Source: Candidatus Latescibacterota bacterium
GTDB lineage: Bacteria > Latescibacterota > UBA2968 > GCA-2709665
Length of the DNA: 64,000 bases
NCBI GenBank assembly: GCA_965222075.1
Contig: OZ244937.1
Coordinates: 4,512,001 to 4,576,000 of the forward strand
Direction: 5' to 3'
Positions 2,729-46,767 of this stretch are shown one piece after another. Every line of letters starts with the position of its first letter. Position 1 is the first letter of the stretch. Made by a program: the position numbers and the translations under genes. The notes beneath the pieces were generated by a model. It saw only the letters and a program-made list of their open reading frames with translations. It did not search any database and was not told the DNA's origin.

Positions 2729-3859
2729 ATGTCCGAAAAGGTATCTGTGCTTTTTGTTCTGCCCGTTGGTTCGACAGAAGATGCCGCGGTTCAAGAGACG
2801 CTGCGAGGGATCTCGTCTCAGACCTATCCCTCTTCTCTGATTGAGGTGATTCGGGTCCAGTATGTACCGGCTGAGCCGGGGGCACGCACATCGGCGCTGA
2901 ACGCCGCGCGAGAGGGGGCCAGCGGGGCGTTTGTGGTCCATGCGGAACCGGGCGTGGTTTGGGATGGGAATAAGCTTGAGCAGCAGGTGCGTCGGCTTAA
3001 GGCCAGCCCTTCGGCAGGGGCGTGCGTGCACCGGATGACCGCTCGAAACAGCGATGGGAAGACCTGGGCGCTTGACCTGGGGGGAATACGCGCGTACGGC
3101 CCCCGCATCGGGTGTCTGCTGAGGTCGCCCTGGGGGCCTGGAGCGGCGATGCTTCAACAAGAGGTGATGGCGAGGGTGGGGGTCTACCGAAACGCAGAGG
3201 AAGTCCTGTGGGAGTATGCCATCCGCTTGGTGGAGAAAGGGCACGTTCTGGATCTCTTAGACGAAGACTTGGCGGTTTGGAACACAGATGCTCCGGTAGA
3301 GGAGCAGCGGCCCCTGGTGCCGGCACAGATCCGGTATGGGTTTTTAAAATCTCACCTGGACCGGACGTCACCGGAGGCCCTGTTTTCCAGCAAGTGCCCC
3401 GAATCGACCGGACGGCTCATACTGGCGGGACTTTATCAGAAGAACGACGATCTGGAGGCTTCCCATACCCTCTGCCAGGAAGCGGGCGGGCAGGCCGATG
3501 GCCCCGAGGCAAGCTACTGGCACGGGATTGTGCACCGGCGGGAACCCGATTTTTCCAATGCCAGGGGATGGTTTAAAAAGGCAGAAGGCCTGTCGGCCCT
3601 GCCCGAGATTTCTCGGGAGGTTGTGGCCTTCCTGCAGCGTGTGCTTCAAGTGCCCGACTACGGAGAGGCCCGGGAGGTGGCGCTGCGGTTTCTGCACCAC
3701 CTGCAGTCTCACGGGACGTGGGACCCCTTCTATTTTGTCGATTTGTGTGAGGCCTGCATGAGAGGGGGAACGACACAGGAGAGGCAGCTGCTGGAGAAGA
3801 CGCAGGAGATCGAATTCGACAGGATGTTTGACTGGACCTACCGGATGGCGACGGAGTAA
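2729..3859 (+). CDS. Degenerate GT2-like domain fused to a helical 'YWHGIVHRREPD' domain
   Basis: N-terminal half follows the GT-A pattern (ISSQTYP..IEVI, SALNAAREGASG, WDGNKLEQQV). C-terminal half has DLEASHTLCQ...SYWHGIVHRREPDFSNARGWF. Confidence 0.7.
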   Translation: MSEKVSVLFVLPVGSTEDAAVQETLRGISSQTYPSSLIEVIRVQYVPAEPGARTSALNAAREGASGAFVVHAEPGVVWDGNKLEQQVRRLKASPSAGACVHRMTARNSDGKTWALDLGGIRAYGPRIGCLLRSPWGPGAAMLQQEVMARVGVYRNAEEVLWEYAIRLVEKGHVLDLLDEDLAVWNTDAPVEEQRPLVPAQIRYGFLKSHLDRTSPEALFSSKCPESTGRLILAGLYQKNDDLEASHTLCQEAGGQADGPEASYWHGIVHRREPDFSNARGWFKKAEGLSALPEISREVVAFLQRVLQVPDYGEAREVALRFLHHLQSHGTWDPFYFVDLCEACMRGGTTQERQLLEKTQEIEFDRMFDWTYRMATE

Positions 3860-4127
3860 AGGGAATGCGGCGCAGGAGTGGTGGAACCAGAAGCAGGGCG
3901 ATGCGCGCCTTCGGTCCGCTGTAGCTGGGGTTGCAGAGGGCCGAATAGCGCCAGACGCTGACCCCTTCCGGGGTGTAACTGCCGAAAAAGAGGATGCCGG
4001 AGTCGGTGATAGAGATCACGCTGACCAGGCGGTCTTCAGCATCGTCTCCGGGCACCCCGCTGATCTGCTTTTCGCTCGCGCTCGGAAACTCACCAGTACC
4101 GAACGGGTGACGGTTTTCAGATGTCTG

Positions 4128-4412
4128 TTATGCGTCCTTGTTTTTTCGGGACTTCTTATAAATGGGTTTCATGCGTTCGACAACTTCCTCATCGGTGGTG
4201 CATGAGGCGACGATTTGTGTGAATTCTTCCGCCGAGATGCCCAGTTCCTCCAGGAACCTTTTGTCTGCCCCTCACGGGTAGACATAATCTCCAATGGTCT
4301 CCCGGAGTTTGGCGCGCGCCTTGTCGGTGATGCGGGGCAGCCAGGAGATGCCCCCCATAGCAAGCATCCGGCTGCGGGGGCGGAAGTCGACGGCCGAGTT
4401 GAGTTTGTCCAT
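4128..4412 (-). CDS. DUF5069-like protein, 94 aa, in-frame TGA at codon 47 (candidate selenocysteine)
   Basis: ATG at 4412 with SD AAAGGAG (4421-4427). Reads PRSRMLAMGGISWLPRITDKARAKLRETIGDYVYP-TGA(4272-4274)-GADKRFLEELGISAEEFTQIVASCTTDEEVVERMK...KDA-TAA(4128). Family resemblance continues past the TGA. Confidence 0.8.
4243..4258 (-). promoter_or_regulatory. Candidate bacterial SECIS hairpin
   Basis: mRNA GGUUCC-UGGA-GGAACU begins 13 nt after the UGA. The loop starts 19 nt after the UGA and has G at loop position 2. Confidence 0.6.
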
Positions 4413-4478
4413 CAGATTTGCTCCTTTCACAGTGAAGTGATAATAGACTGGGTGTATCCCTTTATTTGATAATTTGAT

Positions 4479-4508
4479 AACATAGGGAGTTTTGTGCCGA
4501 AAAGTCAA
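4479..4508 (-). promoter_or_regulatory. Sigma70-like promoter for the DUF5069-like gene
   Basis: Minus strand TTGACT (4508-4503), 18 nt spacer, TATGTT (4484-4479). Confidence 0.5.
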
Positions 4509-4575
4509 GGGTCCAATGGATGTCCTGGTCGGAGCGCGTTTCCACACCGATGGCCTCCCGGAGGGGTTATTCTCT

Positions 4576-5145
4576 TCAGGAGGTTTTGTATAGGGTTAAC
4601 GCGGTATCCCCGTACTCCTTCTGTTTGAGCATAGAGAGACGCGCGCATGCGGTGGGCAGGTCGAGTTGGGGGGTGTGTTGAAGCAGGACCACACCGGTTT
4701 CCCCGGCCAGGGCGGTCTGGCTGATGCGGATGAAGATCGAGAGGGCGATGGGGACGCCGTCGAGTTGCTGGTGATAGGGGGGGTCGAGGTAGATGGCGTC
4801 GAAGGGCATGCACTCTGCATCGAGCAGGGGGAGGAGTTTTTCGGCGGGTCGGGAGAGGAGCCGGATGCGGCCCTCGATGTCCCAGATTTTGAGCAGGTCG
4901 GCGATGGTGCGGCACCTGCGCCCCTCCGGTTCGTTCATCACCACCTTCGCACCCCGGCTGAAGGCCTCCAGTCCGATCTGCCCGGAACCGGCACAGAGGT
5001 CGAGAAAGCGCAGGCCGGTCAGGTCGCTGCCGAGGATAGAAAAGGCGGCTTCTTTGACCCTCCCGGAGGTGACCCGGGCATTTCCGTATTTTTTGATGTT
5101 GAAGGGGACGACGCGCCCTTTCAGGCTGCCGGTAATGATGCGCAT
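4576..5145 (-). CDS. rsmD: 16S rRNA (guanine966-N2)-methyltransferase
   Basis: MRIITGSLKGR start, RVKEAAFSIL, FLDLCAGSGQIGLEAFSRGA, DPPY, KEYGDT. Start moved to the ATG at 5145. Confidence 0.9.
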   Translation of the reverse strand: MRIITGSLKGRVVPFNIKKYGNARVTSGRVKEAAFSILGSDLTGLRFLDLCAGSGQIGLEAFSRGAKVVMNEPEGRRCRTIADLLKIWDIEGRIRLLSRPAEKLLPLLDAECMPFDAIYLDPPYHQQLDGVPIALSIFIRISQTALAGETGVVLLQHTPQLDLPTACARLSMLKQKEYGDTALTLYKTS

Positions 5146-5214
5146 CACAGGACTAAAAATACGCGATCCAGGACCCTTTGTCAATCTATTCCAGTATCTA
5201 AAAGCCCGCCGGGG

Positions 5215-44843: not shown

Positions 44844-45877
44844 TCACGATTCAAATATCTTCCCGATTTCATCCCGGTCGAAGGCGGGGAGGTCGGTCCA
44901 AACGTCGTTTTTACGGAGTTTGAGGCCGAAGCTCCGGTCTTCTACGCGGCCGATGATTTCGCACCGGATGCCGGCTTCCTGAATGGCATCCCGCACTCGC
45001 CCTGCATCACTTGCTGCGACGCCGATGAGGAGAGCGCCGGAGGAGATGATGCCGAGGGGATCGAGGTTAAAGGCAACACAGAGCCGGCGCGTTTCATCGG
45101 AAGCGAATAGGGCCTTCCCTTCCAGGGCGAGGCCGGTGTCGGCGGCTATGGCGAGTTCTCTGAGGGCCGTGGCCACGCCGCCTTCTGTAGGGTCGTGCAT
45201 GGCGTGCACGCGGGCGGTACGGCAGGCGATCCGGGCCTCTTTGAGGATGCTGATGCCGGGGTCGTGAAGGTAGTTTTGGGCGCTGGAGAGAAGGTCGGGG
45301 GTGAAGCCCCGGCCGGCCAGTTCGGTCTGCTTCTCCCGGGCGAGGATGGCGGTGGCTTCCACGCCCAGGCCCTTGGTCATCAAGATGGCGTCGCCCACCT
45401 GGAGGTCGGCGGATTGCACGAGGTCTTCGCGCTGCACTTCCCCCAGCATCTGGCCGACCACGATGGGGCGGTCCAGGCCGACGGTGATTTCGGTGTGCCC
45501 GCCGCAGAGGGAGACATCGATTTCCTGCGCGGCATGGTGGATGGACGCAAAGATCGCTTCAACCAGGGCGGCATCGGTGCGACCCTCGGGCAGCAGGAGG
45601 GTGGCCAGGAACCATCGAGGCAGGGCACCCATGGTGGCGATGTCGTTGGCGTTGACGTGGACCGCGTAGTGGCCGATTTCGTCGGTGGCGAAGGTGATGG
45701 GATCGGTTTTGACGACCAGGCAGGTTTCTTCAAACTCGATGACGGTGGCGTCTTCGCCCACGCGGGGCCCGACCAGGACGCGCTCGTTCGGGCCGGTGTA
45801 ACCGTCCAGGAGACGGGAGAGGAGGTCGAAGGGGAGTTTGCCGGGAGGGAAGACAGCGCTGTTTACGTCGGATGTGC

Positions 45878-45881
<4 letters not shown>
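44844..45881 (-). CDS. AIR synthase-related protein (PurM/HypE/ThiL fold)
   Basis: PGKLP, VGPRVGEDA, KTDPIT, NANDIATMGA, GGHTEIT, MHDPTEGG. ATGA overlap with the cupin gene. Confidence 0.85.

Positions 45882-46767
<886 letters not shown>

Follow-up and report, generated by a model that had tools for sequence, protein, structure and literature searches.

Does the small minus-strand gene at positions 4128 to 4412 of this stretch of DNA, whose frame is interrupted by a UGA codon, encode a selenoprotein? The stretch (hereafter the window) comprises the whole 64,000 nucleotides (nt) from 4,512,001 to 4,576,000 of contig OZ244937.1 in the assembly GCA_965222075.1 of Candidatus Latescibacterota bacterium, and an earlier note made from its letters alone had proposed the gene as a new selenoprotein of the family DUF5069. 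By comparison with related sequences we find it very probable that the gene encodes a stand-alone DUF5069 protein of 94 residues, with selenocysteine (Sec) inserted at UGA codon 47. The frame runs as the note described it, with 46 sense codons, TGA (codon 47, 4274..4272), 47 further sense codons and TAA, and the ribosome-binding site, the hairpin resembling a selenocysteine insertion sequence (SECIS) and, as a consensus match, the promoter were all present where the note had drawn them. The features, all on the minus strand, are as follows.

4128..4412, minus strand: putative DUF5069 selenoprotein coding sequence of 94 codons, from translation with TGA as U and a Pfam match.
4412..4410 and 4130..4128, minus strand: start codon ATG and stop codon TAA of the DUF5069 gene.
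4272..4274, minus strand: UGA codon 47, probable Sec codon, from column conservation and Cys in other members.
4243..4258, minus strand: SECIS-like hairpin GGUUCC-UGGA-GGAACU, with arms 4258..4253 and 4248..4243 and loop UGGA 4252..4249.
4233..4274, minus strand: possible lower stem, pairing the UGA region with 4237..4233, from a minimum free energy (MFE) fold of the window sequence only.
4421..4427, minus strand: Shine-Dalgarno-like AAAGGAG, 8 nt 5' of the ATG, read from the sequence.
4479..4508, minus strand: sigma-70-like promoter match TTGACT-18-TATGTT, from a consensus scan (9 of 12 matches).

When translated through the UGA, the 94-residue product matched Pfam PF16798 (DUF5069) over residues 12-86 with 67.3 bits against a gathering cut-off of 27, and its sequence matched PDB entry 3omd_A (E 2.5e-10), which carries Cys at the Sec column. 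To place this column in the family, 164 proteins were assembled (16 from a large protein collection and 148 of the best 150 of 416 matches), and across 173 aligned DUF5069 domain instances column 47 was found to be Cys in 124, Ser in 25, Trp in 5 and another residue in 19, with nine further instances stopping right before it; U was absent from the site in all 16 proteins of the large collection. The surrounding motif over the 173 instances was G41, D/E42, Y43, Y45, P46, C47, P48/G48 and D50, which bears out the pattern GEY.YPCP.D that the note had given, and the UGA does fall, as it had argued, on a conserved Cys column, where Cys is the residue of PDB 3OMD, of the Cys-form orthologues and of the majority of the family. 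Among single-domain proteins Cys was present at this column in 118 of 138 full-length sequences (Ser in 6, Trp in 5, other residues in nine), with nine more cut at ...Y-x-Y-P, and residues R27, D30, K31, R33, D50 and D74 were near-invariant in an alignment of 99 single-domain proteins. The note's claim that the codons after the TGA keep the family pattern held in part: the DUF5069 match was confirmed, but the FLEE stretch is not family-wide and is invariant only in TGA forms.

The same TGA was widely found in other genomes. A six-frame search of the genome itself and 60 relatives (17 genera and 4 families of one class) gave an in-frame TGA in the best match of 50 of the 61 genomes, the remaining relatives giving four full-length matches without a stop, one absence of any match, and six weak paralogue matches or contig-end fragments. 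Checked codon by codon, 28 of 30 fetched loci had TGA at the identical column (D-Y-[VI]-Y-P-*) and two had TGC. A scan of a collection of species-representative genomes gave 80 loci, with TGA at the column in 59 and TGC or TGT in 21; TGA was seen in 44 of 46 Latescibacterota-type loci (assigned by record title and tree position, some being labelled Gemmatimonadota) and in 15 of 19 Poribacteria-group loci, while all 10 Chloroflexota and all 5 Bacillota-type loci had Cys. Five further class-level relatives comprised three with TGA and two with TGT. The relatives set and the collection set overlap, coming from the same genome collection, and the sequences are kin, such that these counts measure breadth and not independent events. 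Other genomes sharing both the TGA and a conserved hairpin, for which the note had suggested a search, thus exist under two phylum labels.

The region downstream of the TGA retained the properties of a coding region. All of 62 TGA loci gave protein alignments that continued past the TGA as far as residue 81 or beyond and met no other stop, and the mean pairwise nucleotide difference at codon positions 1, 2 and 3 was 0.24, 0.15 and 0.55 before the TGA (codons 7-46) and 0.37, 0.28 and 0.62 after the hairpin (codons 57-84). Judged by these substitutions, the part after the TGA is evolving as coding sequence with the same signature as the part before it. As the frame contains no ATG from the TGA up to codon 81 of the gene, a separate downstream gene is implausible. 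The TGA was also not a peculiarity of one assembly, the distinction from TGC or TGT being a check that the note had called for: contigs of four public runs from three studies had zero differing letters over 3900..4700, TGA included, although two of the four contigs are long and may be the source assembly. Two contigs from metatranscriptome libraries of one study (671 and 707 nt, covering 3900..4530 and 3900..4442) run through the whole gene, before and beyond the TGA; the stretch is present in metatranscriptome libraries that bear the label 'sponge metagenome'.

The hairpin begins 13 nt after the UGA and its loop 19 nt after it in the window sequence, and it was found to be tied to the TGA. 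In the collection scan the 12-nt core TTCC-TGGA-GGAA (TTCCTGGAGGAA) was present in 59 of 59 TGA loci against 1 of 21 Cys loci, upholding the note's description of the hairpin as SECIS-like. All 59 TGA loci had a stem of 5-7 base pairs (bp) and the loop UGGA, and the spacing from UGA to loop was 19 nt in 56 loci and 22 nt, by one extra codon, in three. The hairpin overlaps codons 52-57 (K/R-F-L-E-E-L), and synonymous entropy across the 59 genes was zero at codons 52-56 (AAG TTC CTG GAG GAA), compared with 0.4-1.9 bits at neighbouring codons; the mean pairwise nucleotide difference within the hairpin was 0.03, 0.06 and 0.03 at codon positions 1, 2 and 3. At the same columns the Cys forms read VLAEL, FLQRH, LLKKL and the like, and counts family-wide were mixed, so that in TGA forms it appears to be the RNA that dictates the residues F-L-E-E.

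Covariation was examined in 37 distinct sequences (the window and 36 of 53 distinct TGA-region sequences). Of seven pairs in the helix, four were invariant and three had changes on both sides, and 87.6% of pairing cells could pair compared with 9-58% when partners were slid. The pair closing the invariant core was G-C in most sequences, A-U in L130 and L132 (which are identical over the stretch) and G-U in L129, these being three Poribacteria loci, and was C-G in genome G060. The swaps at the base of the stem, from G-C to A-U and to C-G, are by their pattern probable compensatory changes. The Cys forms nearest to Sec forms carried decayed hairpins, with the closing pair lost at L061:3133-3192 and a mismatch at L062:3133-3192, in both by synonymous changes, and in the Cys form L136 (G059:C79) the stem was kept with the loop UACA, its loop G's lost. 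These relics in nested Cys forms are consistent with recent conversion of Sec to Cys. The support for the hairpin, as we read it, is conservation and covariation and not the fold energy of a single sequence; bases flanking it vary among orthologues, and the possible lower stem at 4233..4274 is therefore unsupported as a conserved element.

In a review of prokaryotic selenoproteins (PMC13188914), bacterial SECIS (bSECIS) elements are given a loop of 3-9 nt, a stem of 4-16 bp, a UGA-to-loop distance of 16-37 nt and an MFE of -7.5 kcal/mol or lower, with G at position 1 or 2 of the loop and, in most cases, G or U next to it on the 3' side. The hairpin lies within all the limits given there (loop UGGA, 6 bp, 19 nt, -11.8 kcal/mol).

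The genome also encodes what would be needed to read such a signal. All four components that the note had listed to be looked for scored over their curated cut-offs: selB (368.6 bits), selA (566.7), selD (374.5) and tRNA-Sec (74.5). The selD gene itself has one in-frame TGA, in the motif ...C-G-G-U-A-S-K..., and its product is itself a predicted selenoprotein; the hairpin downstream of that TGA is unrelated in sequence to the DUF5069 hairpin. More widely, selB was over the cut-off in 48 of the 50 TGA-form genomes of the six-frame search, and it was also present in all three Poribacteria TGA-form genomes tested and in one Poribacteria and one Chloroflexota Cys-form genome; it was not found in G059 (86% complete), which holds the Cys form L136, nor in its genus mate G055 (90% complete).

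The genes for tRNA-Sec, selD and selB lie adjacent on the minus strand outside the window (G000:C1:3959749-3962940; loci L001, L014 and L018). Within the window, at 44844-46178 on the minus strand, an open reading frame (ORF) of 444 residues scored 78.9 bits with the selD model, below its cut-off of 125 (G000:C1:4557081-4557839). The ORF probably encodes some other protein of the PurM/AIR-synthase type and not a second SelD.

Taken as the standard bacterial mechanism, decoding would proceed by recruitment of SelB with Sec-tRNA(Sec) to the small hairpin inside the coding sequence (stem of 5-7 bp, tetraloop UGGA, loop 19 nt past the UGA), and the recruited SelB would allow the ribosome to insert Sec in place of terminating. 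The Sec would take the place of the family's conserved Cys just before helix 2 of the protein. As the hairpin would be built from the codons for K/R-F-L-E-E, the requirement on the RNA would fix both codons and residues in every Sec form. Both the insertion of Sec and the binding of SelB to the hairpin are here inferred.

Three other explanations were weighed against Sec decoding. The first, which we consider improbable, is that the UGA is read through without Sec, a suppressor or near-cognate tRNA supplying Trp, Cys or Gly instead, or mostly terminates with occasional read-through, with the hairpin stimulating read-through or pausing the ribosome. The hairpin is small and of unremarkable stability, as this would allow, yet its spacing and its loop G's are those of the bSECIS model and the full Sec machinery is encoded in the genome. 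Five public gene calls that give W at the site (P0003-P0006 and P0009) would fit insertion of Trp, but TGA is a normal stop in the window, just as the note had remarked (among 29 non-overlapping ORFs with 300 residues or more, TGA closes 13, TAG 8 and TAA 8), and the W calls are therefore artefacts of the gene callers. The residue replaced is, moreover, always Cys, the signature partner of Sec, and the Cys-form genome in which selB was not found (G059) is one where the loop G's have been lost. The W forms, together with nine truncated calls ending ...Y-x-Y-P (P0014-P0016, P0021, P0023, P0026, P0029, P0152 and P0161), are the gene callers' handling of TGA and amount to a systematic annotation error for the DUF5069 family; some gene calls of TGA forms also carry a spurious upstream extension.

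A second explanation, very improbable in our judgement, is that the hairpin is a terminator or attenuator on either strand, or a protein-binding site, and that its link to the TGA is incidental. The reverse complement at 4244..4257 on the plus strand was indeed flagged as terminator-like, with a T-rich run next to it, but the nearest plus-strand gene ends at 3859, 385 nt off, and the hairpin sits inside a conserved ORF, a position which makes the flag probably incidental. Poribacteria, with a wholly different set of neighbouring genes, also retain the hairpin, and it is lost precisely in Cys forms. The third, that the gene is broken by nonsense mutation, pseudogene formation or assembly error and yields at most a 46-residue peptide, has next to no probability and is already refuted by conservation, since public calls that end at the TGA codon (the nine truncated representatives) have to be set against the same TGA in 50 of 61 relatives and under two phylum labels, a downstream frame with no extra stop in 62 of 62 loci and with codon position 3 the most variable, and identical contigs from three studies.

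Several observations weigh against Sec decoding or lessen the force of the evidence for it. The case for Sec is one of sequence comparison. The hairpin is short and its core unvarying, the covariation comes from few sequences at the base of the stem, and the fold energy of -11.8 kcal/mol is no better than chance (z = -0.19, with 86 of 200 shuffles as stable); no Rfam family matched the hairpin in a scan of 4050..4550, which gave one chance-level riboswitch match on the other strand (E 3.5). The selB gene was not found in two TGA-form genomes, G005 and G041 (80% and 84% complete), and because nearly every genome in these groups, the Cys-form ones included, has selB, its co-occurrence with the TGA is necessary but discriminates weakly. 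The Cys of column 47 is not invariant, and as Ser prevails in the multi-repeat DUF5069 proteins (19 of 35 repeats), the residue is not essential to the fold. That some contigs come from RNA libraries hints only weakly at transcription and does not prove it. Finally, no gene partner is common to the phyla, and the neighbourhood gives no clue to function.

How the Sec and Cys forms arose was addressed with a protein tree of 86 rows (63 Sec and 23 Cys) and 88 columns, in which many forks were unresolved. Sec forms fell in two groups, Latescibacterota with three nested Cys forms and Poribacteria with a sister Cys group, and the Cys forms of Chloroflexota and Bacillota lay outside both. At least 5 changes between the Sec and Cys states are required, 2 of them forced by well-supported branches; with too few columns, the tree does not settle the number of switches. 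The identical hairpin core in both phyla suggests either that the Sec form arose once and later reverted to Cys in places, or that it passed from one phylum to the other, two courses that the tree does not separate.

In the gene tree, five records of metagenome-assembled genomes titled Gemmatimonadota or Gemmatimonadetes (L059, L082, L086, L087 and L098) clustered with Latescibacterota loci, and the genome of L059 (G051) is assigned to the order of the window's own genome; the phylum labels of these five look inconsistent.

To ask what the residue at position 47 may do, the product was modelled with AlphaFold2 (predicted local distance difference test, pLDDT, 87.9), giving a short hairpin and four helices (residues 25-36, 48-57, 61-70 and 74-93) with Sec47 placed directly before helix 2, in the loop motif Y-x-Y-P-[U/C]-[G/P]-x-D. 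Foldseek matched the model to 3omd_A (E 5.1e-4, template modelling score (TM) 0.75, root-mean-square deviation 1.6 over 78 columns); this was the sole match at E <= 0.001, the other 12 having E >= 4.9 and TM <= 0.32 and being meaningless, and a profile search of PDB sequences likewise gave 3omd (E 5.9e-38) with only chance-level annexin matches besides. The natural Cys homologue P0007 yielded no usable match in the Protein Atlas. Reactive thiolates and selenolates usually belong to a Cys or Sec placed at the N-terminus of a helix, and Sec almost always marks a chemically active residue, making Cys/Sec47 the likely functional centre. In the model, the selenol at the N-terminus of the helix may accordingly be a reactive centre, for redox chemistry or for sulfur or selenium transfer; the note's suggestion of a redox- or metal-active site is a conjecture of the same order.

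A redox selenoprotein of thioredoxin fold was considered and ruled out: the protein has no UxxC or CxxU motif, the local sequence being Y-P-U-G-A-D with no Cys within 3 residues, and the all-helical model, four helices and the short hairpin, is not thioredoxin-like.

TusA-type sulfur carriers have a Cys-Pro-x-Pro motif at a helix N-terminus. They resemble DUF5069 in having a single reactive Cys, then Pro, at the start of a helix in a small stand-alone domain, a likeness in motif position only; there is no match in sequence or fold (3omd being the only Foldseek match at the threshold above), and the resemblance is a lead and not a sign of membership.

Further indications came from domain fusions. 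Cys-bearing DUF5069 domains were found fused to a NuoF-like flavoprotein with flavin mononucleotide and 4Fe-4S sites, to cupins (in two proteins), to a methyltransferase and to a dienelactone-hydrolase-like domain, and a domain fused to an AI-2E family transporter had Ser at the site (the fusion proteins being P0114, P0035, P0047, P0135, P0124 and P0099). As a guess from these architectures, the fusions would suit a redox-sensing or carrier module in an accessory role more readily than a self-sufficient enzyme. Upstream of the DUF5069 gene, an RsmD-like methyltransferase (PF03602) was kept in 36 Latescibacterota-type loci and not in other phyla; in Poribacteria the neighbours were UPF0182 and a chorismate mutase/prephenate dehydratase gene, and in Chloroflexota lumazine synthase and others.

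Drawing these strands together, we tentatively put forward, as a possibility that we ourselves hold to be rather doubtful, that DUF5069 is a module with a single reactive Cys or Sec on a helical, non-thioredoxin fold, acting as a redox sensor or as a sulfur or selenium carrier, either alone or appended to NuoF-like flavoproteins, cupins, methyltransferases and transporters, and that its Sec form, with a minimal, near-invariant SECIS core of 14 nt, had one origin and has since spread or persisted in Latescibacterota and Poribacteria. If this were true, the hairpin would be among the smallest natural SECIS elements and would be a case of an RNA signal dictating four residues of a protein.

The proposed decoding was compared with that of known systems. 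With genes read by SelB through a SECIS inside the gene (the prototype being E. coli fdhF, and the bSECIS model that of Zhang and Gladyshev), the DUF5069 gene shares an in-frame UGA with a stem-loop just downstream in the ORF, a small loop with G second and then G, a 19-nt spacing, Cys homologues, and selA, selB, selD and tRNA-Sec. It differs in that the conserved part of its hairpin is only a stem of 5-7 bp with a tetraloop, near-invariant across two phylum labels and without a conserved lower stem, and binding by SelB is in this case a prediction. The only solved structure of the family, PDB 3OMD ('unknown function protein from Leptospirillum rubarum', DUF5069, 145 residues), shares family, fold and motif with the product, with Cys at the Sec column, but it has that Cys and not Sec, is 51 residues longer and gives no clue to the chemistry. 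The closest parallels in kind of evidence are predicted single-Sec families such as DUF523, DUF1858, DUF3179 and DUF166, which, as described in PMC13188914, also have one Sec in an uncharacterised domain, a Sec/Cys pair, a conserved TGA and a bSECIS-like hairpin; DUF5069 differs from them in being unlisted there, all-helical and without UxxC or CxxU.

The note had not known DUF5069 as a selenoprotein family, and it was indeed absent from the sources searched. The May 2026 review by Zhang et al. lists 119 prokaryotic selenoprotein families or subfamilies with domain identifiers (PMC13188914), and PF16798 is absent from all 119 entries of its Table 1 and does not occur in the paper. A scan of the product against NCBIfam release 20, whose models underlie many rows of that table, gave no family at E <= 1, and the family is not named in the available part of the deep-Sep paper (PMC12013277). 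Full-text search found 'DUF5069', 'PF16798' and 'IPR031849' in no paper, the matches to '3OMD' being unrelated metabolites, and listings for selenoprotein with Latescibacter* and for selenocysteine with Poribacteria contained nothing on DUF5069. No paper naming DUF5069 as a selenoprotein was thus found, with the proviso that the supplements of deep-Sep, of the GOS study and of the ISME 2016 survey could list the family under another name. As a selenoprotein family DUF5069 is uncatalogued; the mechanism of decoding is classical and the family is new.

Such a family would add to the roughly 119 known or predicted in prokaryotes, and would do so in uncultured lineages. More than 60 genomes would carry wrong annotation, with the gene cut at residue 46 or the codon given as Trp. 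Cys/Sec47 would then be the functional centre of an uncharacterised domain for which a crystal structure (3OMD) exists, and experimenters would have in it a concrete target for mutation. The short invariant hairpin, together with its decayed copies in recent Cys forms, would also be a clean natural data set for the minimal needs of a bacterial SECIS.

In the window, the RsmD-like methyltransferase gene (PF03602, 117.5 bits) is the next gene upstream, likewise on the minus strand, at 4576-5184, and the gap of 163 nt between it and the DUF5069 gene includes the promoter-like site. Three promoter-like sites were counted in the region by the consensus scan against 0.3 expected from shuffles; these are matches only and give no evidence of function.

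The genome also carries a paralogue with several DUF5069 repeats (G000:C1:4378558-4379181, minus strand, in an open frame of 445 residues), and three-repeat DUF5069 proteins of 430-445 residues were found in most relatives. In the representatives of these repeat proteins (P0017, P0018, P0027 and P0064) the Sec/Cys column is mostly Ser, and one protein of 1140 residues (P0051) has 11 matched DUF5069 stretches.

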